Part shown: piece after piece, positions 1,625 through 51,773 of the stretch
Numbering within the stretch: the first letter of the stretch is position 1
Layout of the letters: every line of letters starts with the position of its first letter
NCBI GenBank assembly: GCA_963745035.1
Contig: CAVUVW010000013.1
Coordinates: 1,248,001 to 1,312,000 of the forward strand
Origin: an uncultured delta proteobacterium
GTDB taxonomy: Bacteria > Desulfobacterota > Binatia > UBA9968
Reading direction: 5' to 3'
DNA length: 64,000 nucleotides
The notes under the pieces: generated by a model
What the model was told of the DNA's origin: nothing
Databases searched by the model: none
What the model saw: the letters and a program-made list of their open reading frames with translations, nothing else
Position numbers and translations under genes: made by a program

Positions 1625-3467
1625 TCAATCCTCCTCGCGCCATGATCTCAAGACGTGAACGATCTGATCGACGCAGGCTTCCGGTCTTGTGCCCAAGGTT
1701 CGGAGATGTATTTCCGGGGCGAGCGGCGCTTCGTAGTCGCTGTCGATGCCGGTGAAATTTTTCAGCTCGCCGCGCCGGGCTTTCGCGTAAAGACCTTTGA
1801 CATCGCGGCGCTCGCACTCTTCGAGCGGCGTATCGACAAAAACCTCGACGAACTCGCCGCCGTCAAACAGACCCCGCGCCAGCTCGCGCTCGGCTCGATA
1901 GGGCGAGATGAAGGCGACGATGACGATCAATCCGGCATCGACGAGAAGCTTCGCGACCTCGCCGACCCGGCGGATGTTTTCCACCCGGTCCTCTTCGGTA
2001 AATCCCAAATCCCGGTTGAGCCCATGGCGGACGTTATCGCCGTCGAGAATGTAGGTGTGTTTGCCGGCGGCGTGCAGGCGCTTTTCCAGGAGATTGGCGA
2101 TGGTCGATTTTCCCGAGCCTGAAAGTCCAGTGAACCACAGGCAGCGGGCTCGCTGGTACTTCATCTCGGCGCGGGCGATTTTAGTCACTTCCAGCGCTTG
2201 CCAATGGACATTGATCGCCCGACGCAACGCGAAATGGATCATGCCCGCGCCCACTGTTTCGTTGGTGAGCTTGTCGATGATGATGAATGCGCCCAGCCGT
2301 TTATTCTCGCGGTACGGCGCGTAGGGAACGAAGCGATCGAAACTTACGTTGACCGTCGCGATCTCATTCAAAGTCAGCGTCTTGGCCGCCAGATGGGCGC
2401 CGGTGTTGATGTCGAGATGATGTTTGATGTGAGTGATGCTTACGCTAGCCGACTTGCTATGGATCAGCGCGGCGTAAGGGCGGCCGGGCAGCATCGGGTG
2501 ATCGCTCATCCAGAGAACATCGGCCTCGAACTGGTCGGCCGACTCCACCGGGTGAGATGCGGCCGCGATCACATCGCCGCGGCTCGCGTCGACTTCGTCT
2601 TCCAAAACCAATGTCACTGAGTCTCCCGCCGTCGCCGCCGCTTTTTCGCCGCCCCAGACCGCGATTCGTTTGACGCGGCTGGAGACGCCGGATGGGCTGA
2701 TTCGCACGCTGTCACCGGCCCTCACCGAACCACTGGCGATCCGGCCGGAAAAACCGCGGAAGTCGAGATTCGGCCGATTCACCCACTGCACCGGCATGGC
2801 GAACGGCTGCTGAACACCGACCGTCTTCCGTTTTCACGTCTTCGAGCCACTGGAGTAGGCTCGGGCCGCCGTACCACGGCATAGCCGTCCGTCCCGCTTC
2901 GACGACGTTGTGCCCCTCTAACGCCGACAAGGGTATAGCGGTGATCGTCTCGAAACCTAGATCTTGGGCGAAGCGGCGAAAGACAAGTTCGATTTCATCG
3001 AAGGTCTGCTGCGACCAGTCGACGAGGTCCATCTTGTTGATCGCCAGCGCCACTTGGCGGATTCCGAGCATCGAGACGATGCGGGAGTGACGCTTGGTCT
3101 GCGTCAAAATTCCCTTGCGCGCGTCGACCAGCAACACAGCGGCCTGCGCGGTCGAAGCGCCGGTCGCCATGTTGCGCGTGTACTGTTCATGACCCGGCGT
3201 ATCGGCAACGATGAAGCGGCGGTGCGTCGTGGAGAAGAACCGATAGGCGACGTCGATGGTGATCTTTTGCTCGCGTTCTGCCTGCAGGCCGTCGACCAGC
3301 AGGGCAAAATCCAAGCGCTCGCCCTGAGTGCCGAATTTCTTCGAGTCCGCCTTGAGCGCCTCCAGTTGGTCTTCGAAAATCAGCTTGGTCTCGTAGAGCA
3401 GCCGGCCGATCAAGGTCGATTTGCCGTCATCCACGCTGCCGCAGGTAATGAACCGCAGGGTATCCAT
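1625..3467 (-). CDS. cysNC: Bifunctional sulfate adenylyltransferase subunit 1 / APS kinase (CysNC), split by one frameshift near 2810
   Basis: N-terminal GTPase motifs [21 protein letters not shown] (ORF 2712-3467). C-terminal kinase motifs [25 protein letters not shown] (ORF 1625-2797). Confidence 0.93.
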
Positions 3468-12414: not shown

Positions 12415-12443
12415 ATCTTAAGTAAGACGATCGGATATGTCAA
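12415..12443 (-). promoter_or_regulatory. Sigma70-type promoter for the Rrf2 gene
   Basis: Minus strand reads TTGACA-17 nt-TAAGAT, ending 27 nt upstream of the ATG. Confidence 0.7.
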
Positions 12444-12592
12444 CAACACTAGAATCCGCTTCCGGTGCCCCCGCAGAGAAGGAATATTTTGGCATTGAAA
12501 CCGGCGGTTGCGCGTTCCTACGGCTTGCCGCTATATTCGCGGAAAATCGAGTATTAGCGCGGTCGGGGAGTAATTTCTTGGAGGTCAGCTTT

Positions 12593-13624
12593 ATGATGTC
12601 GCGAAGCAAAACCGTCACCTTGACTGCCCTATTTTCATTGCTTGTAGCGGTTTCGGCCTATGCGGCGGCGGCTTCCGGAGAGGTCATCATCACCCATGCG
12701 AGCATGAGCACGTCGTCGATCCCATTGTGGGTCGCGCAGCGGCAAAATTTCTTCGCGAAGTACGGGGTTAAAGCGAAAAGCGTGTGGGTGCGCGGCAACC
12801 CGGCGCAGATCGCCACTCTCGTTTCCGGCGACACCCAGATTGCCTACGGCGGCGCGACCACCGCGCTCGCCGCCGCTGTCGGCGGCAGGGACATGAAAAT
12901 CATCGCCAGCCTCAGCAGCCGCGAAAATCTCGATTTGGTCGCCCGGCCGGGCATCAACAGCGCCAAAGACTTGCGTGGCAAACGCTTCGGCATTCAAAGT
13001 GTGGGCGGGGGTGTTTGGAAAACCGCCACCGTCTGGCTCGAGCATTTCGGCATGGATGAGCGGCGCGACAATATTCAAATGATCGTCATCGGCGACGTGA
13101 CGATCCTCAGCCAGTCGCTCGAAAGCGGTCTGATCGATGCCACCGTCGTGCCGGGATACTTGAGCCGGCGACTGGCGGAAAAAGGATTTGTCGTGCTCGG
13201 CCGCTGCGAACAGACCCGGCTTACTTCGGTCGGCATGACCGTGCTGGTGGAGAGACCGTACCTCCAGCAGAATGCCGAGACCTTGCAAGGTGTCATGAAG
13301 GCGTTGGTCGAAGGCATGGTGTTGATCGCGAGCCCGAAGCACAAACCCGCCGTGATCGAGACCATCATGAAACAGTTCAAAATGACCGATGTCGCGCCGG
13401 CTGAAGGCGCCTACCAGGACGTGGTCACCCTCGTGCGGATGGAGGAATATCGCAAGCCGTATGTGTCCATGGACGCTATGAGAACCTTGCAGCGTCTGCT
13501 AAAAACTCAAAATCCAAAAATCGGCGACATCAAGGTTGAACATCTAGTCGATTCGAGCGTCGTCAAAAGACTCGACGATAGCGGCTTCTTCGAGAAGCTT
13601 TATGCCGAATACGGAGTGAGGTAG
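12593..13624 (+). CDS. ABC-type substrate-binding protein, SsuA/THI5/NMT1-like
   Basis: GGAGG RBS; signal peptide; PLWVAQRQNFFAKYG, DLRGKRFG, VDSSVVKRLDDSGF. Confidence 0.85.
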   Translation: MMSRSKTVTLTALFSLLVAVSAYAAAASGEVIITHASMSTSSIPLWVAQRQNFFAKYGVKAKSVWVRGNPAQIATLVSGDTQIAYGGATTALAAAVGGRDMKIIASLSSRENLDLVARPGINSAKDLRGKRFGIQSVGGGVWKTATVWLEHFGMDERRDNIQMIVIGDVTILSQSLESGLIDATVVPGYLSRRLAEKGFVVLGRCEQTRLTSVGMTVLVERPYLQQNAETLQGVMKALVEGMVLIASPKHKPAVIETIMKQFKMTDVAPAEGAYQDVVTLVRMEEYRKPYVSMDAMRTLQRLLKTQNPKIGDIKVEHLVDSSVVKRLDDSGFFEKLYAEYGVR

Positions 13625-16459: not shown

Positions 16460-17483
16460 GTGGCCAATCTTTTGCTGATTCTCATAGTTTTCCTGTCGCT
16501 GACTTCTTCCGACCCCGCTGAATCCGCCGCGCCGCCGAAGCTTATCGTCGGCTACGCCGCCATGAGCGCGCGCGTGGTCCCGCTCTGGATCGCCGAGGAA
16601 CAGGGAATCTTGAGCAAGCACGGCATCGATTCCGAGCAGGTTTTCATCCGCGGCGCGCCGACTCTTGGTTGCCGGCTTGGCGTCGGGCGACATTTCCATC
16701 GGCAGCACCGGCGGCAGCGCCATGCTGGCGGCTGTCGCAGCCGGTCACGATTTGAAAATGGTCGCCGCCTTTTCCAGCCGCAACACCTACGACCTCGTGA
16801 CGCGATCATCGATCAAAAGGCCGGAAGATTTGCGGGGCAAGCGTTTCGGCGTCACCAGCATCGGCGGCACCGTTTGGATGGGGATCATGCTTTGGCTCGA
16901 GCATTTCGGCCTCGATGAGCAGCGCGACAAAATCCAGCTCCAGGTGATCGGCGATCAGAGCATCCAGATGCAGGCCCTCGAGAACGGCACGATCGACGCG
17001 GCCGTGCTCGATGGCGTCTACAGCCGCCGCTTGAAGCAAAAGGGCTTCAACATTACGGGTGAATATTCCGAGCTCAAACATTTATTCATTAGCCAGGCGA
17101 TCGTCGTCCAAACCAAATTCCTGCAGCAGCGCTCCGAGCTCTTGGAGAATCTCTTGAGAGCGCAAGTGGAAGCAATCGCCTTTTCCCTCGCGCCGAAAAA
17201 CAAAGCGATCGTTATCAAAACGTTCATGCGCCGACTTAGGACCGATGCGGCGGCGGCGGAAGAAGGCTACGCCGATCTGCACCGAGCAATGGACCGAAAG
17301 CCTTACCCTTCTCCAGACGGACTGCGTAACGTTCAGCGCCTGATGGCGCTCAGAAGTCCGAAAGTCGGCGAGCTCAAGATCGAGAACGTCATCGACAGCC
17401 GCATCATTCGCAAACTCGACGAAAGCGGCTTCATCGATCGCGCCTATGCGGCGCAGGGCGTCAGCTTGAAACCATTAGCGTGA
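16460..17483 (+). CDS. ABC-type substrate-binding protein, SsuA/THI5-like; frameshift near 16665
   Basis: Two overlapping ORFs join at FIRGAPTL/VAGLASG; GGAGG RBS. Confidence 0.85.
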
Positions 17484-33804: not shown

Positions 33805-34779
33805 ATGAAGGCAATTCAAGTCGTGATCGGGACTCTGACGATCCTTCTTTCAACCCTTGCTTGGGCCGAGCAGGTCCGGACCGTGATACCGCGCGCAACC
33901 CTCAATTACTTGAGCGTGCCGGTGGCCGAAGTGAAAGGTTATTTTCGCGACCAGGGATTGGAGAACCAGACCATCGTCATTCCCGGCAGCACGGCGATTG
34001 CGGCGCTGGTGAGCGGCAACGTCGATTTCAGTGGCGCCGGAGGTACGGGCATGCGCGCAGCGCTGCGCGGCGCGCCGATCAAAGCGGTGATGTTCCAGAC
34101 AGAGAAAGTGACCTGGTATCTTTTGGCCGCGCCGGAGATCCAGAAGATCTCGGATCTTCGCGGCAAACGCATCGCCGTCGGCACCATCGGCGATACCCAG
34201 GACGCGCTCATCACCATGCTCGTCGAACGCGAAGGCGTTTCAGGAAAAGATCTCTCGCGCGTGGCGATGCCGGCACGCAACACGACCAATACGATATTGT
34301 CGCTCAAGACCGGCGCGTTCAGCGCCGCGGTCGTCAATGCCGACGAATCGCTGCTCGGCGAAAAAGAAGGACTGCGCACCCTGGCGTTTGTCGGCGATTT
34401 GTTCCCATATCCCTTTCAAGGTTTTGTCGCCACCGACAAAATGATCGCCGAGCGTCCCAACGATATCAAACGATGGCTTCGGCCCATGGCCCGCGCGCTC
34501 ATGTTCATCCGCGAGCGACCAGAGGAGGCTGCGGATATTGCGATGAAAAAAATCCCGATGGGCAACATGAGCCGGCCCCTGGTCATCGAAGGCATCCGGC
34601 GCTTCGCCAAGTCCCTGCCCGACGGCGTGCCGGGGCTGCCGACGCCGCAGGGAATCAAGAATTTGATGGAATTCGACGTCAAGGCGCCGCTCAAGATCAA
34701 AGAAGATATTCCGCCGGAAAAAGTCATGAACTTTAAACTGATGCGCGAGGTCAAGGAAGAATTGGAGAGTAAACGGTGA
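33805..34779 (+). CDS. ABC-type substrate-binding protein, SsuA/THI5-like
   Basis: Signal peptide; KGYFRDQGL, ALVSGNVDF, DLRGKRIAV. Confidence 0.85.
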   Translation: MKAIQVVIGTLTILLSTLAWAEQVRTVIPRATLNYLSVPVAEVKGYFRDQGLENQTIVIPGSTAIAALVSGNVDFSGAGGTGMRAALRGAPIKAVMFQTEKVTWYLLAAPEIQKISDLRGKRIAVGTIGDTQDALITMLVEREGVSGKDLSRVAMPARNTTNTILSLKTGAFSAAVVNADESLLGEKEGLRTLAFVGDLFPYPFQGFVATDKMIAERPNDIKRWLRPMARALMFIRERPEEAADIAMKKIPMGNMSRPLVIEGIRRFAKSLPDGVPGLPTPQGIKNLMEFDVKAPLKIKEDIPPEKVMNFKLMREVKEELESKR

Positions 34780-34803
34780 CGACGTCCGGTAAAAGATCAC
34801 CTA

Positions 34804-35810
34804 TGAAGCGAGTTCGAGCCTTCTCTCTACTATTCGCCTCATTTGTCCTACCGGTCCTACTCTTGTGCTCTTCAATCGCGCAGACCCAGGAGAAAAAAAA
34901 CCTCCGCATCGTCTTCGTCAGCCTGTCGTGGAACAACCAGCTCCCCTATCGCATCGCCATCGCCAAAGGTTTCTTCAAAGATCAGGGTCTGAGCGTCGAG
35001 CAGATTTTCGTCCGCGGCGGGCCGACGGCGATCGCCGCACTGATCTCCGGCAACGTCGACTTCGGCAGCATCGGCGGCGCCCAGGCGCCGATCCGTAGCA
35101 ACGCCCGCGGGCTCGACCTGCAGATCCTCGCCTCGCTGTCCAACTACACCAATTACACCCTGCTCGGCAGCAAAGAAGCCAAGAGCATCGAAGAGCTGCG
35201 CGGCAAGATCATCGGTGTCACCGGAGCCGGAGCCTACTCCGATTTCGCGATCCGGATATTTCTCAAACGCCACAACATCGACCCGGACCGCGATGTCACC
35301 CTGCGCGCCATCGGCGGCACGGCGCTGCGCGCGATCGCGCTCGAAAGAGGTGTTATCTCGGCGGCGCCCTTCACCGCTGAAGATACGATTCGCCTCATCG
35401 ACAAGGGATACCCCATGATCGTCAACTTGAACGAAGCGCTGCGCATCCCGCAGAGCATCCTGGTCACGCGCGGGGAACTGCTGCAAAAATATCCCGAGAC
35501 TTCCAAACGCTTTCTAAAGGCGATGATTCTCGGCATGCAGATCGCCAAGTACAACAAGAAGGAAGCCATCCAGATCGGCGTCGCGAGCGGCCTCCCTGGC
35601 GATCCCGACCTGATTCACCGCTCCTACGATCTTTTCAGTCCCGGCTACGCCGCCGATCTCTCGGTCGCCCACGACGGCATCCAGATCATGCTCGATGAGG
35701 ACGTCCGCGCCGGAGTGGTCGACAAGAAGTTTACCCTCGACCGCGTCGTAAACGAGCGCATTTTGAAACAGGCGCAGCTAGAATTGAAGAACGAAGGACG
35801 GCTCAAGTAG
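34804..35810 (+). CDS. ABC-type substrate-binding protein, SsuA/THI5-like
   Basis: Signal peptide; KGFFKDQGL, ALISGNVDF, ELRGKIIGV. Confidence 0.85.
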
Positions 35811-35882: not shown

Positions 35883-37007
35883 ATGATGAAATTGCCTGGT
35901 AGAATACTTCAAATCTGTGGGTTGTTTTTCTGGCTCTGCCTGGCGGCGGCGCAAGCCGCCGAACCGAGGCCGTCCTGGGAAGCGGAATGGGCCAAGACGA
36001 TTGAACTAGCCAGAAAAGAAGGTCAGCTCACGGTTTCCCATACGCGCGGCCCGTTCGATCAAGTTTTCGGCGATTTTGCCAAGCGTTATCCCGAGATCAA
36101 AGTCGTGTCGATCGCCGGGCGCGGCGGCGATCTGATTTCGCGCATCATGGCCGAGCGGCGCGCCGATAAATACCTGACGGATCTATATCTCGGCTCGTCG
36201 GGAACGCCGATGGACGTGCTCCATCCGGCAAAAGCCCTCGAGCCGGTGCCGAACTTCATGATCTTGCCCGAAGTCAAAGATCCGTTGAAGTGGTTTCGCA
36301 AGCAGCATCACTACGCCGATCCCGAGGCGAAACACATTCTCGTCTTTGAAGGCGTCGTCCGCTCCGACATGGCGTTCAACACCAACCTCGTCGACGTCAA
36401 GGAGTTCACGTCGTACTGGGATCTGGTGAAGCCCAAGTGGAAAGGGAAAATCGCCGCGATGGATCCCAAGCTGCCCGGTTTTCCCAGTGGGCTGCTGCAA
36501 TTTTCCTATTACCACCCCGACCTTGGCGTTAAATTCCTACGGCAACTGTTCGGCGAGATGGAGTTGACGGTGTCGCGCGAGGCGCGCCAGTTAGTCGATT
36601 GGCTGGCAGTCGGCAAGTTCGCCATCGCGCTCGCGCCCTCGGCCAGCGAAGTACAGGCAGCCAGCAAACAAGGCCTGCCCGTGGGACGCTTCGAGCCGCG
36701 CGCGTTCAAGGAAGGAATTTACATGCGCGCAACCCAGGGCTCGCTCAGCATTCTGACCCGCCAGCCCCATCCGCATACGACCAAAGTGTTCGTCAACTGG
36801 CTGCTCTCGCGCGAAGGCCAAACGGCGTATCAGAGGCATTTCTTGCGAATCGATCCGATCTTCAGCCTGAGAGAAGATGTCCCCGCCGATTCGTCGGTCG
36901 AGAGCTACCGCCCGAAAGCCGGAGATAAATTCATGGCGGTCTATCGAGCGGAATTCAGGGAGCTGGACGACGCCTACAAAGTCGTCGATGAAGCCTTGAA
37001 GCGTTAG
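35883..37007 (+). CDS. Extracellular solute-binding protein (Fe3+/thiamine/polyamine type)
   Basis: ARKEGQL, RIMAERRA, FNTNLV, DLVKPKWKGKI, FVNWLLSREGQ. Confidence 0.85.
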   Translation: MMKLPGRILQICGLFFWLCLAAAQAAEPRPSWEAEWAKTIELARKEGQLTVSHTRGPFDQVFGDFAKRYPEIKVVSIAGRGGDLISRIMAERRADKYLTDLYLGSSGTPMDVLHPAKALEPVPNFMILPEVKDPLKWFRKQHHYADPEAKHILVFEGVVRSDMAFNTNLVDVKEFTSYWDLVKPKWKGKIAAMDPKLPGFPSGLLQFSYYHPDLGVKFLRQLFGEMELTVSREARQLVDWLAVGKFAIALAPSASEVQAASKQGLPVGRFEPRAFKEGIYMRATQGSLSILTRQPHPHTTKVFVNWLLSREGQTAYQRHFLRIDPIFSLREDVPADSSVESYRPKAGDKFMAVYRAEFRELDDAYKVVDEALKR

Positions 37008-37059
37008 CTCGCCAAAAAAGCAGGTCCCGTCGGCTTTCCATAAAAATTGGCGATAAAGA

Positions 37060-37088
37060 TTACAAAAATCTTCTCTCTCTGCTATATT
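37060..37088 (+). promoter_or_regulatory. Putative sigma70 promoter for top6B-top6A
   Basis: TTACAA-17 nt-TATATT with an extended -10 TG, in an AT-rich intergenic region. Confidence 0.5.
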
Positions 37089-37276
37089 CGGCTAACCAGC
37101 CAGAATTGTGCAAGTAAGAATTCTGCGGTTCTCTTACCCAAAGTGCGGTTGTAAGTTTTGCGTGACGACTCGCTCATCCCTGAATTGCAACGCCGAGAAG
37201 TAGGCTCAGCGCGAGAGCTGCCGCGCTGCTCTCATTTCAGTTCTAACGTAACCTGATCCACGGAGACAGCAAAGAG

Positions 37277-39328
37277 ATGGCCAAACCGATGCCCAAGTCC
37301 ATCAACGAAGCGGCTGAGCCGCCGCGAGAGCCGAAGACGGTCTCCGCCGCCGAGATGGGCGCGCGCCAGCGTGAGATTTCGGTTTCCGAATTTTTCACCA
37401 AAAACCGCCACCTGTTGGGCTTCGACAACCCGCGCAAGGCGCTGCTCACGTGCGTCAAGGAAGCCGTCGACAATGCGCTCGACGCCTGCGAGGAGGCGGG
37501 TATCTTGCCCGAGGTCATCGTCAAGCTCGAAGTCGCTGCGAACGGCGGGCCGGCCGTCGCACCAAGCCAGGCCAGTCGCTTTCGCGTCACGGTGATCGAC
37601 TACGGACCGGGCATCGTGCGCCAGCAAATTCCGCGAATTTTCGCCAAGCTGCTCTACGGCTCGAAGTTTCATCGCCTGCGCATGAGCCGGGGCCAGCAAG
37701 GCATCGGGATTTCGGCCGCGGGCATGTACGCCCAACTCACCACCGGCAAACCGGTGCAGATCACGTCGCGCACCGGCGCGCGCACGCCGGCGCATTATTT
37801 CGAAGTGCAGATCGACACCAAGAAAAACGAGCCGCGCATCCTCGAAAAAAAAGAGACCGAGTGGGAAAACCACCGAGGCACCCAGGTGACTCTGGAGATC
37901 GAAGGGCGCTACCAACGAGGCCGCGCTTCGGTGGACGAGTATCTCGAGCAGACCGCCATCGCCAACCCGCACGTCAAGCTCGTCTACCACACGCCGGAAG
38001 GAGAAGTTAAGGAATACCCGCGCACCATCGAAGAGCTGCCGCCCCAGCCGCGCGAGATCAAGCCGCATCCTTACGGCATCGAGTTCGGCATCTTGCTAAG
38101 AATGCTGCACGACACCCGAAGCCCCTCGCTTGCGGGATTTTTAGCACACGATTTCAGCCGGGTTTCTTCGAACGTCGCGCAGGAAATTTGCAAGACAGCC
38201 AAGCTTTCGGCTGATTTGCGGCCGCGCAATATTCACGGCGCCGCCGCCGAAGCGCTTTACAAGGCGATTCAGGCTACGAAAATCATGGCGCCGCCGACCA
38301 ATTGCATTTCACCCATTGGCGAAAAGGCGATCCTCCACGGCCTCTACAAACAGATCAAGGGAGAATTTTATACCGCGGTGACGCGCCCGCCCGCGGTCTA
38401 TCGCGGCAATCCGTTTGCGATTGAAGCCGGCTTGGCCTTCGGCAAAGGACCTGAAGAAGCGAATGGTAAGGCTGAACGCCCCGCCCAACCACTCGCCGAA
38501 GGCGAGGAGCGGGACGACAACAACGAGTTGGCGAGCGTCATTCGCTACGCCAATCGCGTGCCGCTGCTCTACCAGCAGTCGGCCTGCGCCACGTTCAAGG
38601 CCGTGCTCGACACGAGTTGGCGGAACTACGGCGTTGGCCAATCGCGCGGCGCTCTGCCCGCCGGACCGATGGTAATCTTTGTCCACATGGCCTCGGTCTG
38701 GGTGCCGTTCACCAGCGAGTCCAAGGAAGCGATCGCCGACTACGACGAGATCCGCAAAGAAATCAAGCTCGCGCTCCAGGAGTGCGGCCGGCGCCTCGGC
38801 ATGTTTCTACGACGCCGCGAGCGCGCCAAGAGCGAGTTTCGCCGCCGCAACATCTTCGAGCTTTATATCGAAGAAGTCGTCGAGGCGTGCAACCGGCTCA
38901 AGGGCGGCAAGCTCCCCAAGGAAAAACTGAAAGAACAGCTGCAGAAAATCGCCATGAAGCGAACCGGCGGCGAAAAGACCGATGAAATCCTCGGCTATGA
39001 CGGCGGCGGTCCGGAGGGCTTGCCTCATTCGATTATCGTCACGCCGGAGGGGACCGAAGGCGATGCGCCGGTGATCGAAGGCAGAGACGAGGTTTTGCCT
39101 CGGCAAGAAGAACTGCTCGAAACAGAAGGCAACGAATCGGAGCCCCCGGCCAAAGCGTCGAGGAGAAAAACGAAGGCAAAGGGAAACGTCGGTAAAGTCG
39201 CGCAGGCAAGCCGTTCGAAGTCGGAGAGCAGCAAGCAAATGAGTTTAGGTTTCGACGCTAGCGGAGCCGGCGAAAGGAACATCCGGAAGTCAGGGAAAAA
39301 AGATGGCGCGAAAAAAGCAAAAAAGTAA
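37277..39328 (+). CDS. top6B: DNA topoisomerase VI subunit B
   Basis: ISVSEFFTKNRHLLGF; GHKL motifs KEAVDNALDA, DYGPG, SRGQQGIGIS; IKPHPYG; transducer motifs YANRVPL and PFTSESKEAIA. Confidence 0.95.
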   Translation: MAKPMPKSINEAAEPPREPKTVSAAEMGARQREISVSEFFTKNRHLLGFDNPRKALLTCVKEAVDNALDACEEAGILPEVIVKLEVAANGGPAVAPSQASRFRVTVIDYGPGIVRQQIPRIFAKLLYGSKFHRLRMSRGQQGIGISAAGMYAQLTTGKPVQITSRTGARTPAHYFEVQIDTKKNEPRILEKKETEWENHRGTQVTLEIEGRYQRGRASVDEYLEQTAIANPHVKLVYHTPEGEVKEYPRTIEELPPQPREIKPHPYGIEFGILLRMLHDTRSPSLAGFLAHDFSRVSSNVAQEICKTAKLSADLRPRNIHGAAAEALYKAIQATKIMAPPTNCISPIGEKAILHGLYKQIKGEFYTAVTRPPAVYRGNPFAIEAGLAFGKGPEEANGKAERPAQPLAEGEERDDNNELASVIRYANRVPLLYQQSACATFKAVLDTSWRNYGVGQSRGALPAGPMVIFVHMASVWVPFTSESKEAIADYDEIRKEIKLALQECGRRLGMFLRRRERAKSEFRRRNIFELYIEEVVEACNRLKGGKLPKEKLKEQLQKIAMKRTGGEKTDEILGYDGGGPEGLPHSIIVTPEGTEGDAPVIEGRDEVLPRQEELLETEGNESEPPAKASRRKTKAKGNVGKVAQASRSKSESSKQMSLGFDASGAGERNIRKSGKKDGAKKAKK

Positions 39329-40409
39329 TGGCGCGGTAGAGAAGAAGCTCATCGGCGTGGCCGATGTCGTGATCACGGCGGCGCAGCGCAGCCAGGATCC
39401 GGCGCTGTCGATCCCAGTGCGTAGTCTCGCCAACGTCAACTTCAACGAGAAGCGCGGCATCATCGAAATGGGACGCAGGAAACAAGCGCGCACGTTCTTC
39501 AACGTCGGCATGGCGAAAAAATTCATGCAGACGGTGCTGGTTGCCGACGCTCTGGCGGAGTTACAGCGAGCGAATTTGACTACGTCTCTTCGCGAGATTT
39601 ATTATCGCACCAAGCACACGATCAAAAACTCGCACGAAAACACCTTCGACGGCCAGAACGAATCCGACCCGCTCATCGAAGATCTCGAAGTCAGTCTCGA
39701 AGCGTTGCGCGAAGAGCTGCACGTGCGCGCGGAGAATTCCGGCACGGTGGTCGGGCCGTTGACCCTGGTCGACGACGGCGACCGGGTGGACTGCACGCGC
39801 CTCGGCAAGGGCGGCTATTCGGTTCCGTCCATCGTCGAGCCGGAGTATATTCAGATCAGCAAATGCACCGCCGATTTCGTTCTGCTCGTCGAGAAAGGAA
39901 CCCAGTGGAACCGGCTTTCCGAAGACAAGTTCTGGCGCCGCTACAACTGCATCCTGCTCACGGGAAACGGCCAGCCACCGCGCGGCGTCCGCCGCCTGGC
40001 GCGCCGGCTGCACGAAGAATACAATCTGCCGGTTTACGTCCTCGTCGACAACGACCCCTGGGGCTATTACATCTATTCCGTCGTCAAGCAGGGCTCGATC
40101 AATCTCGCCTTCGAAAGCCAGCGCATGGCGATTCCCAAGGCCAAGTTCATCGGCTTTTCCAGCTCGGATCCAGAACGCTACGGCTTGCCGCGCAACGTCG
40201 GCATAAAGCTCAACGACAAAGACATTAACCGCGCCAAGGAGCTGGCGAAGTACAAATGGTTCCAGAAAAAGGAATGGCAGAACGAAATCAAGGGCATGCT
40301 CGCAAGCGGTCTCAAGTACGAGCTCGATGCGCTCGCCAACAAAGATTTTCAATATCTAACCAAGACCTATTTGCCGAGAAAGCTCAAAGAAAAAGACTTG
40401 CTGGACTAA
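39303..40409 (+). CDS. top6A: DNA topoisomerase VI subunit A (Spo11-like)
   Basis: Catalytic LREIYY; FDGQNESD; TOPRIM motifs VEK and DNDPWG; overlaps the top6B end. Confidence 0.95.
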   Translation: MARKKQKSNGAVEKKLIGVADVVITAAQRSQDPALSIPVRSLANVNFNEKRGIIEMGRRKQARTFFNVGMAKKFMQTVLVADALAELQRANLTTSLREIYYRTKHTIKNSHENTFDGQNESDPLIEDLEVSLEALREELHVRAENSGTVVGPLTLVDDGDRVDCTRLGKGGYSVPSIVEPEYIQISKCTADFVLLVEKGTQWNRLSEDKFWRRYNCILLTGNGQPPRGVRRLARRLHEEYNLPVYVLVDNDPWGYYIYSVVKQGSINLAFESQRMAIPKAKFIGFSSSDPERYGLPRNVGIKLNDKDINRAKELAKYKWFQKKEWQNEIKGMLASGLKYELDALANKDFQYLTKTYLPRKLKEKDLLD

Positions 40410-45179: not shown

Positions 45180-45369
45180 ATGCCAGAGAAAAATGCGCTC
45201 GCGCACCGATTGCGCTATGCTGGAGGGAGCGAGGCTTTCTCCCGCCGAGCTTGAAGTGAGTCGTCAGCGAGATCGAGGATCTGGACGGATTGTGGCGGAG
45301 CTTGAAGAGTTCGCTCAAGGCACTCCCTGGATTTCGCTGCAAGTGCAACCCGCCCGCAAAGGGTCTTGA
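45180..45369 (+). CDS. Small acidic protein upstream of the amidase (possibly GatC-like); frameshifted
   Basis: AAGGAG RBS; fragments read VSEIEDLD and IVAELEEFAQGTPWISLQVQP*; stop 2 nt before the amidase ATG. Confidence 0.4.
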
Positions 45370-45371
45370 CC

Positions 45372-46800
45372 ATGACTGCCGGCGATATCCTCGAATTGAA
45401 TTTAACCGATCTTGCTCGAAACATTGCGCGAGCCGCGAACTGTCGTCGTCCGAAGGCGGTGAGCGCGGCCCTGGCGCGTCTGGATCAGCTCGAAGGCAAG
45501 CTCAACGCTTTCATCACGGTTCTGCGCGAGCAAGCTCTCGCCGAAGCGAAAAAGGCGGATGAAGAAATCGCTCGCGGCAATTATCGCGGCCCGCTGCACG
45601 GCGTGCCGGTGACGATCAAGGACATGTTCGAGACCGCCGGCGTGCTGACCACAGGCGGATCGAAGATTCTGGCGGATTGGATTCCCGACACGGATTCGGC
45701 ATTTAGTGGAACGATTGCGAAGCGCCGGCGCGATCATCATCGGCAAGACCAATCTCGACGAGTTCGGCCACGGCGGCACGTCGACGCTTTCTCACTTCGG
45801 CCCCGTTCACAATCCCTGGAATATCGACCGCATCGCCGGCGGCTCGAGCGGCGGCTCAGCGGCGGCGGTCGCAAGCGGCATCGGGCCGCTTTCCTACGGC
45901 ACCGAGACCGGCTCTTCGGTGCGCCGGCCCGCATCGTATTGCGGCATCGTCGGCTTCAAGCCCACCTTCGGCATGATCAGCCGGCACGGTTCCTTTCGTG
46001 GCGCCTGGAGTCAAGATCACGTCGGGCTGTTTGCGCGTTCGGTGAAAGATATCACATTGGGTTTCGATCCCGTGGCGGGCTTCGACGCGCGCGATCCGGC
46101 GAGCGTGCATCAAGAGGAGCCGGCGTACGCCGCTCGCCTCGACGGCAACATTAAAGGACTGAAAATCGGCGTGCTCCGCCGTTTTCTCGAAGGCGCGAAC
46201 ACAGAAGTCAGGCAATCTTTCGATCACGCACTCAAAGTTCTCGCCGACGCAAGATGCGAAATAGTCGATCTTGGATATTCCCGAACTGCGATACGCCGCG
46301 ATGACATCCATGCTGACCAGCTCGGCCGAGAGCGCCGGCATCAATCGCCGCTGGTTTCGCGAGCGGCACCAGGACTACGTGCCGCACGTGAGCCGCGGCA
46401 TCGCCGTGGGCATGACGATCACGGCGTCGGAATATTTGACGGCTCAGCGCGCGCGCCACAAAATCCGCATAGGCGATGCGCAGGGCCTACGAGGCGTCCA
46501 AATCATCGCCTCGCCGACAACCGCGCAGAGTCGCGCCGCTGCTGTCGGACGGCGTCAAAGGCAACGGCGATGACACGCGCCATGCGAGCTACAATCATTC
46601 CAATCTGTTGCGCTTCCCGAGCATGCTCGGATTGCCCGGTTGCTCGCTGCCCTGCGGCGTGAACTCGGAAAGTTTACCGATCGGTCATGCAGCTCATCGG
46701 AGCTTGGTTCACCGATCAAACCGTTTTGAATACGGCTCTCGCCTACCAGAACGCGACGGACTGGCATATGCGCCGACCTAACATCATCAACACAGTGTGA
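45372..46800 (+). CDS. Amidase signature family enzyme; several frameshifts
   Basis: GPLHGVPVTIKD, GKTNLDEF, GGSSGGSA, GTETGSSVRRPA, GFKPTFG, GLPGCSLP. Confidence 0.88.
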
Positions 46801-50795: not shown

Positions 50796-51773
50796 CTATC
50801 GATAAAGTTTCTCGGCAAACCCAGATTTATGAATATCTTCAAGCAAGGATAGATCCGAAAAGTCGGTGACTTTAACTTCTTTCGCTTTGGGATGAATCCG
50901 TGCGATGAAGTCGAGAGTGAAGCGCACCGACTCCGGATCGGGACGTAAATTTTTTTCCACGCGCCCGGTGATTTCACTGTAAAAGAACTCAATGACCTTC
51001 GGATCGCGGGCGCCGAGGTAATCGGAAAATATCATGATAGTCTCCCGCTTGTTGGTGAGCAGGAAATGAATGCCTTCCATGTATCCCTTCAAGAATCGAA
51101 CAAGCTTATCTCTGTTGGCGGCTACAAAATCATTCTTGACGTTAATGCCGCCGGCGATGACCGGCGCATCGATTTTGGCGAGAAATTTCATGCCGCTCTC
51201 CCCGGCGACCATATCGTAGGGCGGAGTGATCATGGCGGCGATCACGAGTCCTTTCTCCAGGGCCGCCACCCGGGCGCTCGGGCTCCCTCCAATGGGCAAA
51301 AACTTGACCTCTTTTTCCGGATCGATGCCGTTGTCGAGGAGCAGCTTAGACAAGCGCAATTCCAGCGAACTGAATCCCTGGCTGCCGATACCGATAACCT
51401 TGCCTTTGAGCTGTTTAATCGAATCGACATTTTGTCGCGCCACGAGAGACGAGCCCAGCGAGTTGGTCGTCACGCCCAGGCGCAAGACATTGGCGCCTTT
51501 TAAATTGGCGAGGATGGTGGACGTGTCCGAGCCGATGACGACGTCCAAGCTACCGCTGAGCAACGTAGGTATGATGACGGCGCCTGACAACAAGATGAGC
51601 TCCACGTCGAGATCATACTTTTTCCAAAACCCTTTTTTTGCCGCGACCCAGGTGGGACTCAAGGCGGTCGCCAATGAAGGAAAGCCGACACGCAGTCTGT
51701 CGGCGCCCACGACGATCGCCGATGAACCCGCAAGGTAGCCGATGAGACAGATCGAGAAGAGCGCGCGCCGCAT
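50796..51773 (-). CDS. ABC-type substrate-binding protein, SsuA/THI5-like
   Basis: Signal peptide; WVAAKKGFWKKYDL, QLKGKVIG, RFLKGYMEG. Confidence 0.85.
   Translation of the reverse strand: MRRALFSICLIGYLAGSSAIVVGADRLRVGFPSLATALSPTWVAAKKGFWKKYDLDVELILLSGAVIIPTLLSGSLDVVIGSDTSTILANLKGANVLRLGVTTNSLGSSLVARQNVDSIKQLKGKVIGIGSQGFSSLELRLSKLLLDNGIDPEKEVKFLPIGGSPSARVAALEKGLVIAAMITPPYDMVAGESGMKFLAKIDAPVIAGGINVKNDFVAANRDKLVRFLKGYMEGIHFLLTNKRETIMIFSDYLGARDPKVIEFFYSEITGRVEKNLRPDPESVRFTLDFIARIHPKAKEVKVTDFSDLSLLEDIHKSGFAEKLYR

Follow-up and report, generated by a model that had tools for sequence, protein, structure and literature searches.

Why does a bacterium carry an operon for topoisomerase VI (Topo VI) of archaeal type, and what would the enzyme do there? 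The question is raised by a top6B-top6A gene pair at positions 37,277 to 40,409 of a 64,000-nucleotide stretch of contig CAVUVW010000013.1 (hereafter the window, meaning the whole stretch that was analysed), from an uncultured delta proteobacterium placed in Binatia (assembly GCA_963745035.1). To our knowledge Topo VI has never been studied in a bacterium, and it is an obvious candidate for unlinking chromosomes in bacteria that lack topoisomerase IV (Topo IV). The occurrence of Topo VI in bacteria, its link to missing Topo IV and its transfer have already been published by Allen & Maxwell 2024 (PMC11302465), who report the enzyme from 17 bacterial families, including Nitrospiraceae (Nitrospira moscoviensis), 10 of them without Topo IV. 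The replacement of Topo IV by this gene pair, put forward in an earlier reading of the window's sequence (the original prediction), is thus not new, as occurrence and idea both appear in that paper. What the locus adds is a widespread uncultured soil lineage among the carriers of Topo VI, an order in which loss of Topo IV is independent of having Top6, and a tail motif in Top6B that could show how an imported enzyme is wired into bacterial replication.

We consider it reasonably probable that the pair encodes a working Topo VI acting as decatenase and relaxase, that it is an add-on to a lineage already without Topo IV, that it belongs to a clade spread over several phyla, and that the tail of its B subunit docks on the sliding clamp.

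An intact operon under purifying selection

The operon consists of two co-directional genes that overlap by 26 nt and contain no internal stop codons:

37277..39328, + strand: top6B, topoisomerase VI subunit B, 683 aa, with a GHKL ATPase domain at about residues 54-189, a helix-two-turns-helix region and a transducer domain at 339-521 (Pfam, NCBIfam and alignment to solved chains).
39303..40409, + strand: top6A, topoisomerase VI subunit A, 368 aa, with a winged-helix domain carrying Tyr101 (39603-39605) and a TOPRIM domain at 192-361 carrying E197, D249 and D251.

Both subunits pass the NCBIfam equivalog cut-offs, Top6B with NF003218 (671.8 bits, cut-off 274) and TIGR01052 (521.9 bits, cut-off 380.7), and Top6A with NF003333 (569 bits, cut-off 465), which covers residues 4-368. 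Pfam matches were Topo-VIb_trans (PF09239, 187 bits, cut-off 24) and HATPase_c (PF02518, 36.6 bits) for Top6B, and TOP6A-Spo11_Toprim (PF21180, 207.7 bits), TP6A_N (PF04406, 62.9 bits) and Topo_VI_alpha (37.2 bits) for Top6A. Top6B residues 21-523 align with M. mazei 2q2e_B (478.5 bits) and Top6A residues 28-366 with S. shibatae 2zbk_A (264 bits). Tyr101 aligns with position 106 of the latter, which we take to be the catalytic tyrosine of S. shibatae Top6A, and in an alignment of 29 sequences extending down to 30% identity Y101, E197, D249 and D251 do not vary. The Top6B stretches KEAVDNALDA (61), IDYGPGI (107) and SRGQQGIG (137), presumably the ATP-lid and glycine-rich ATP-binding motifs, are conserved relative to M. 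mazei 2q2e_B, and SESKEAIAD (480) in the transducer, which we assume to contain the conserved functional lysine, aligns with SESKDAIAD of M. mazei. The completeness of both genes, their freedom from frameshifts and the ATPase, transducer, catalytic tyrosine and TOPRIM motifs that the original prediction had read from the window were all recovered in this way.

Relatives were collected by scanning one genome per species with a 10-sequence Top6A alignment, and the best 80 of at least 597 loci were retained. In 79 of these 80, top6B lies directly 5' of top6A; the exception, L015, starts 173 nt before top6A. From domain content, catalytic residues and gene order we infer that the pair encodes a working A2B2 type IIB topoisomerase (Topo VI), its activity being predicted and not an observation. 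In six within-family comparisons the ratio of nonsynonymous to synonymous substitution rates (dN/dS) of top6A was 0.034-0.072, and top6A is under strong purifying selection. The GC content over 36-40 kb is 0.585-0.592, against a window-wide range of 0.548-0.637, and the GC content at third codon positions (GC3) of the operon is likewise host-like, as had been proposed for GC.

The region upstream of top6B contains two further elements:

37059..37088, + strand: promoter-like element, ATTACA, 18 nt, TG-n-TATATT (9/12 plus TG in a consensus scan).
37089..37276, + strand: long 5' leader (presumed), whose GGAG ribosome-binding site occupies 37262-37265.

The original prediction had listed a promoter of the operon's own, and the first coordinate that it gave for the operon, 37060, falls together with this candidate site. 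A TACAAA...TCTCTGnTATAAT element, the equivalent of 37059-37088, recurs about 190 nt 5' of top6B in 10 of 12 same-order loci, in spacers that are otherwise unalignable. GGAG about 10 nt 5' of the top6B ATG is kept in most aligned loci and the remaining spacer shows no conservation; 37089-37276 would be a 5' leader.

As an observation on other assemblies, top6B of L009/L088 (G004) and of L090 (G014) reads 410-422 aa although the tblastn match runs on, which probably reflects frameshifts of those assemblies and not of the window.

No Topo IV in the sampled order, whether or not Top6 is present

The genome (7.43 Mb in 28 contigs, 5.8% estimated contamination) holds a single PF00521 gene with a single PF00204 gene next to it, and one PF01131 gene. 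Its sole A subunit carries a GyrA box, which reads QRRGGKG and lies at residue 541 of its open frame; the presence of this box is the criterion by which Allen & Maxwell separate GyrA from ParC (PMC11302465). The search for parC/parE and gyrA/gyrB that had been recommended as a check therefore returned one gyrB-gyrA pair and, by PF00521 and PF00204 in a genome 92.6% complete, no parC or parE; no second type IA enzyme was found in it either. The topoisomerase complement is gyrase, topoisomerase I and Topo VI, without Topo IV. Only one GyrA-type gene is present in G025, a relative that carries Top6 and whose genome is closed in one contig.

We then compared relatives at several taxonomic depths. 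The order sample comprised 41 genomes including this one. Beyond this genome the genus contributed 24, the unpublished genome G005 among them, and Top6A was present in 19; the other five have a completeness of 60-91%, and G002, one of these five, holds Top6B at the end of a contig. In the other genera of the order the counts were 2/2 (g2), 0/11 (g3), 0/1 (g4) and 0/2 (g5). A second GyrA/ParC gene was found in none of the 41 genomes searched, of which 39 gave a match and G018 and G024 none; the two PF00521 matches of G027 are abutting pieces of one gene. All 11 genomes of g3, four of them single contigs, are without Top6A and without a second GyrA/ParC gene. Topo IV is missing from the order as sampled, with or without Top6, and therefore Top6 is not an obligatory substitute; closed gyrase-only genomes without Top6 exist, so gyrase alone suffices there. 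The proposal that the pair may replace Topo IV is thus borne out as far as the genome lacks parC/parE, but not as an obligatory substitution, the order lacking ParC even without Top6.

In a class draw of 151 genomes, which includes the unpublished genome G121 (Top6A-negative, one PF00521 match), Top6A was present in 12: this genome, 7 of 8 others in f1, 1 of 2 in f2, 1 of 7 in f5 and 2 of 2 in f19, with Top6A of f5 and f19 only 55-56% identical to that of the window. Top6 is retained across four genera of the window's family, and one family member that is 100% complete (G042) is without both subunits. A phylum draw of 201 genomes gave six with a Top6A match, the five others being 36-39% identical. 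The original prediction's description of a long-resident pair holds at genus and family level, on these counts (19/24 in the genus, 7/8 further family genomes) and on dN/dS. It had also named parC/parE together with a patchy top6 as evidence that would tell against replacement: parC/parE are absent, and Top6 is patchy above the family level (12/151 in the class, 6/201 in the phylum). This lineage, whose relatives are labelled Binatia, is a new carrier of a known bacterial Topo VI.

Exactly one PF00521 match was found in 66 genomes of the class draw and two or more in 85, and Top6A occurred in 12 of the 66 and in none of the 85, where PF00521 matches are not copy numbers. The link between presence of Top6 and absence of Topo IV in this draw is suggestive. 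In genomes of three other phylum labels with near-identical Top6, the GyrA query found only GyrA, as one gene (in pieces in the Eisenbacteria genome).

Two side observations concern these GyrA searches. GyrA of G183:C31:10-3414 (Eisenbacteria by label; the genome from which L064 comes) is matched by two separate segments of a single 1203-aa frame and may carry an insertion such as an intein. In family f11, G058, G075, G084 and G108 have a single PF00521 match (best E 1e-142 to 1e-147) at the score level typical of the second (ParC-like) group, relatives having two; their GyrA may have been missed or interrupted.

A tight Top6 clade spread over several phyla

The 80 loci carry the labels of five phyla, and their Top6A is 80-95% identical. 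Counts by label among these best 80 of at least 597 were as follows:

Deltaproteobacteria/Binatia: 6
Methylomirabilota/Rokubacteria: 15
Nitrospira/Nitrospirota: 49
Eisenbacteria: 2
Elusimicrobia: 5
Other labels: 3, on 4.1-9.0 kb contigs

Top6A is 81-86% identical to the Nitrospira-labelled loci. Identities to the window proteins were compared with those of GyrA:

Same-genus genome: GyrA 87%, Top6A 93%
Nitrospiraceae: GyrA 62%, Top6A 83%
Rokubacteria: GyrA 58%, Top6A 88%
Eisenbacteria: GyrA 53%, Top6A 83%

Top6A is a slow protein, as its dN/dS values indicate. Between phyla the Top6A distance is 0.29-0.45 of the GyrA distance, a lower ratio than within the genus (about 0.54); had descent been purely vertical and GyrA saturated, the ratio should have risen instead.

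The phylogeny against archaeal and bacterial Top6 that the original prediction had suggested was reconstructed from 62 rows. It gave a tight multi-phylum bacterial clade (Shimodaira-Hasegawa-like approximate likelihood ratio test, SH-aLRT, 100; branches about 0.1), whose sister is a 55%-identical clade of the same class, with the named archaeal representatives on branches of 1.7-4.8. The nearest named archaea are DPANN, 43-47% identical. Identities of archaeal Top6A were 47% for Woesearchaeota, 43% for Rehaiarchaeum/Parvarchaeota, 40% for a sequence named "archaeon", 36% for Hydrothermarchaeales and 34% for Nitrososphaeraceae, labels that rest on the names of 5 of 20 cluster representatives. 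Rokubacteria split into two groups, and the Top6B tree concurs. Because of the contrast between Top6A and GyrA, the trees and the patchy distribution, our results support movement of the Top6 clade between bacterial phyla. Published work describes at least two transfers of Topo VI from archaea to bacteria, followed by secondary transfers (PMC11302465). Synonymous sites are saturated, with a proportion of synonymous differences (pS) of about 0.5-0.7 for top6A and also gyrA at every depth, even within the genus, and the transfers are therefore given no dates; nor do we claim a donor of Top6.

Separate acquisitions within the order were considered as well. G025/G029 stand apart from the window's family (SH-aLRT 85 and 98), but the approximately unbiased (AU) test does not reject one clade (p 0.122), and separate acquisition is not claimed. 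Some Top6A relatives of 770-950 aa (P0132, P0137, P0139, P0141, P0144, P0148, P0153 and others) match in two stretches several hundred residues apart, and look as if they carry an intein or other insert.

A clamp-like motif in the Top6B tail

The tail motif is the fresher point of this locus; the operon itself is ordinary as a catalogue entry. Two features are relevant:

38984..39325, + strand: Top6B C-terminal tail, residues 570-683 (114 residues), acidic and then basic low-complexity sequence ending in KKAKK.
39236..39253, + strand: QMSLGF, Top6B residues 654-659, a candidate beta-clamp-binding motif in the low-complexity tail.

The tail lies outside the NCBIfam and Protein Data Bank (PDB) alignments, the core alignment stopping at residue 523-537. 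Near its start, just past the last transducer helices, residues 578-595 (window 39008-39061) form a stretch, GPEGLPHSIIVT..G.EG, in which most columns are invariant across 13 aligned Top6B sequences and which is absent from the aligned range of the solved archaeal chains; it could contact Top6A. A K/R-rich C-terminus is found in the tails of nearly all clade members (29-tail alignment, 76-tail scan).

E. coli Pol IV uses QLVLGL. The tails were scanned for Q[LMIV]x[LMIV]F or Q[LMIV]x[LMIV]x[LF], and 25 of the 76, which are related sequences, matched, against 0.18 expected (mean of 500 shuffles, maximum 2). In the otherwise variable tail the motif forms one conserved island, which reads QM[STN]LGF for the window's family and takes the form Q[MIL]xLF in many Nitrospira; of three Top6B proteins from the 55%-identical sister clade, one terminates in QQKLF and another in QLRLV. 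This island is similar to the consensus by which bacterial proteins bind the clamp, QL(S/D)LF (PMC9690074).

A complex model of the DnaN dimer with Top6B 620-683 scored 0.63, and the best of three controls 0.00; the mark used is one that 116 of 157 solved complexes attain, as do 2 of 215 mismatched pairs, a calibration that is only rough given shallow self-made alignments. The runs agree in at least 53% of contacts, with a predicted local distance difference test (pLDDT) value of the partner of at least 41. Out of 64 residues, the confident modelled contacts involve exactly Top6B 651-660, with DnaN 172, 174-177, 243, 248, 346, 348, 362 and 364-368, including its C-terminal MPMRL; we take these DnaN residues to correspond to the canonical cleft of E. 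coli beta. An AlphaFold2 model of Top6B, built from 13 close sequences, was of low quality (mean pLDDT 47.7, predicted template modelling score 0.36), with a tail devoid of secondary structure; low confidence in the tail is no evidence of disorder, and the model was left out of fold searches.

QMSLGF would probably tether Topo VI to beta clamps on newly replicated DNA in the window's family and part of Nitrospira. The wider claim, that after its transfer into bacteria Topo VI gained a true beta-clamp-binding tail peptide (QMSLGF here, QxxLF in Nitrospira, C-terminal QQKLF/QLRLV in the sister clade), we advance tentatively, with doubts somewhat outweighing belief. If it is true, clamps remaining in the wake of the fork, the very place at which precatenanes arise, would serve as loading sites for an archaeal-type decatenase; a bacterial type II topoisomerase would be physically coupled to the sliding clamp; and a foreign enzyme's standing in for Topo IV and spreading among phyla without Topo IV would be explained. 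Among the titles listed, our literature search found no paper on Topo VI with a clamp-binding motif or the sliding clamp in bacteria. The DinB-type polymerase of the same genome ends in ...RVEKLF, an anecdote and not a calibration.

Role of the enzyme and alternative explanations

If the enzyme works as its archaeal homologue does, the GHKL domains of Top6B, driven by ATP, would dimerise and so capture one DNA duplex, Top6A would cut a second through Tyr101 and the Mg-binding residues E197, D249 and D251, and the first duplex would pass through the break. Topo VI would most likely serve as a dedicated decatenase and relaxase for replication products, the job of Topo IV in most bacteria, with QMSLGF holding it at clamps on the new DNA. 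It would be an add-on to a lineage already without Topo IV; sister lineages manage with gyrase only, which is why we do not regard it as an indispensable replacement. Such a role agrees with the description of Topo VI as a preferential decatenase (PMC8837201), with the published rationale that Topo VI may supply a specialised decatenase where Topo IV is missing (PMC11302465), and with a remark in the same paper that, in unpublished work, M. mazei Topo VI complemented an E. coli parE(ts) mutant.

Several observations weigh against a dedicated, clamp-docked decatenase. Gyrase-only relatives without Top6, including closed genomes (g3, 0/11; G042), indicate that the need for a decatenase can be met otherwise, and since related genomes are not independent, the contrast of 12/66 with 0/85 overstates the association. 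The motif is missing from 51 of the 76 tails, among them all 13 from Rokubacteria/Methylomirabilota, both from Elusimicrobia, one of two from Eisenbacteria and both from G025/G029, as well as those of four family members (L008, L091, L096 under the strict pattern, and L097). In the motif-less lineages no substitute clamp-like motif was found, the pattern giving no match in Top6A and only a few unplaced strings in Top6B outside the tail, and both matches in the Eisenbacteria tail of L064 sit in a repeat and look spurious. Clamp-peptide complexes have already been solved, so the model score may show likeness and not binding. Contigs from RNA libraries of two studies (soil; rhizosphere) map onto both top6 genes, several of 110-172 nt being mismatch-free, a weak hint of top6B/top6A expression, but these contigs could represent DNA carry-over or close relatives. 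They leave 36931-37192 and most sequence after 40337 uncovered, gaps on which we put no reading.

Topo VI could instead be a dispensable auxiliary, with gyrase doing the essential decatenation, Top6 easing topological load (for example the positive supercoils of large genomes with heavy transcription, or load that arises in certain conditions) and the tail acting as a non-specific basic DNA-binding arm. The absence of ParC from every order genome searched, Top6 present or not, would fit such a role, as would the loss, or failure to gain, of Top6 in G042. The tails point the same way, as the K/R-rich C-terminus is the sole feature common to nearly all clade members and the Q..LF island is not. 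Top6 genomes of the class draw are also somewhat larger (3.8-7.4 Mb) than single-GyrA genomes without Top6, many of which have 2.0-3.7 Mb, with overlapping ranges. However, dN/dS of 0.03-0.07 and retention in four of the family's genera speak for a selective advantage that has been steady, the lack of Top6A in all 85 class-draw genomes with at least two GyrA/ParC matches fits functional overlap with Topo IV better, and the motif island is far commoner than chance and was singled out by the complex model. We regard the auxiliary role as rather unlikely.

That Top6A-like nucleases occur in bacterial defence systems (PMC13040014, PMC10123090) raises the further question of whether the pair is a topoisomerase at all, or a defence or nuclease module on the Top6A/Spo11 fold, like MksG/JetD of Wadjet. 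We rejected such a module as highly improbable, given that a full Top6B (ATPase, helix-two-turns-helix, transducer) is present and aligns end to end with M. mazei Top6B at 478.5 bits, and that both subunits lie above the equivalog cut-offs. No condensin-like (MksBEF/JetABC) or other defence genes were seen among 57 Pfam-scanned open reading frames (ORFs) of the window, which were not put through a dedicated defence-system scan, and the position of the pair is conserved among housekeeping and metabolic genes. Even smaller is the chance that the bacterial context is an artefact of a mis-binned or chimeric contig, or that the pair is a recent functionless import. A 28-contig assembly with 5.8% estimated contamination, in which two other window genes look frameshifted, leaves some room for this, but the window, positions 1,248,001 to 1,312,000 of a 1.97-Mb contig, shares that contig with dnaA-dnaN, the operon is host-like in GC and GC3, and dN/dS is low. 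Because of dnaA-dnaN on the same contig and upstream linkage repeated in four other assemblies of the genus, contig chimerism, which the original prediction had named as a threat to the bacterial context, is very unlikely, and we rejected it. A working Topo VI, serving as decatenase and relaxase beside gyrase, is the explanation that we retain.

Comparison with known systems

The bacterial Topo VI of PMC11302465 is the same two-gene enzyme, found beside gyrase and without ParC/ParE, and our nearest named non-bacterial relatives, DPANN at 47% and 43%, fit its bacterial cluster "close to a few DPANN and Euryarchaeota". Binatia are not mentioned in the main text of that paper (its Supplementary Table S2 may list further taxa), and a literature search found no paper linking Binatia/Binatota with Topo VI. 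Neither tails nor clamp motifs are mentioned in the passages of PMC11302465 covered here, and it is the present analysis that documents, across the sampled order, a lack of ParC that does not depend on Top6.

Domain order and catalytic residues match those of archaeal Topo VI (M. mazei 2Q2E, S. shibatae 2ZBK and M. jannaschii Top6A 1D3Y). The DNA-sensing elements studied in M. mazei (PMC5922973) are altered, the KGRR loop to RGRA, which keeps only part of the basic residues, and the WKxY motif to WRNY (HMMER alignment). The 114-residue tail extends beyond the aligned core, where only residues 3-475 of the 621-residue M. mazei chain align. The nearest solved chains are discordant, Top6A scoring best with S. 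shibatae (264 bits vs 192 for M. mazei) and Top6B with M. mazei (478 vs 280 bits).

With Topo IV (ParC/ParE), Topo VI would share the presumed job of unlinking replicated chromosomes and relaxing positive supercoils, whereas the cleavage subunits are unrelated (type IIA there, type IIB here); ParC/ParE are absent here and in 40 order relatives. Like the bacterial beta-clamp binders (Pol III alpha, Pol IV, Pol V, MutS, MutL and others; PMC9690074), Top6B has a short Q-hydrophobic-x-hydrophobic-(x)-F/L peptide in a putatively disordered terminal region. No topoisomerase is among the partners in the table passage of that source, and the motif here is M-rich (QMSLGF), occurs in one third of clade tails and would bind DnaN according to a model. 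MksG/JetD and Spo11 have in common with Top6A the winged-helix domain with its tyrosine and the TOPRIM fold; they are without the canonical Top6B ATPase partner, whereas here a full B subunit is encoded alongside.

Genome context

Neighbouring genes serve bacterial metabolism and transport and include those for assimilatory sulfate reduction, ArgJ, many NMT1-type binding proteins and an extracytoplasmic function (ECF) sigma factor. Pfam was run on 57 of the 59 other window ORFs of at least 90 aa; 37 matched and 20 did not, and no transposase, integrase or phage family was found among the 57, in agreement with the predicted lack of mobility genes nearby. The order ArgJ-amidohydrolase-phosphoesterase-dehydrogenase-NMT1a-NMT1b upstream of top6BA is repeated in all four further genus loci that reach that far (L089, L090, L091, L094), and in a second genus (L096) the substrate-binding protein (SBP) gene lies directly 5' of top6BA. 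The loci of the second family (G025, G029) have nothing in common with the window's neighbourhood. The closest relatives by DnaN and Top6A are labelled "Candidatus Binatia bacterium" and "Deltaproteobacteria bacterium".

Paralogues of NMT1/THI5-like periplasmic binding proteins lie at 527-1570, 12437-13624, 16665-17483, 33805-34779, 34776-35810 and 50796-51773, and also around top6 in L088-L097; two NMT1-type genes are the operon's conserved upstream neighbours. An amidase gene at 45366-46662 (+ strand) seems to be split over two frames (ORFs 45366-46154 and 45706-46662, the second covering only 84-276 of a 445-position Pfam model) and is either a frameshifted pseudogene or an assembly error. 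A cysN/cysC-type gene at 1625-3467 (- strand) appears as two ORFs with an 86-nt overlap, one with the GTPase domain (2712-3467) and one with EF-Tu domain 2 and APS kinase (1625-2797), and is possibly frameshifted.

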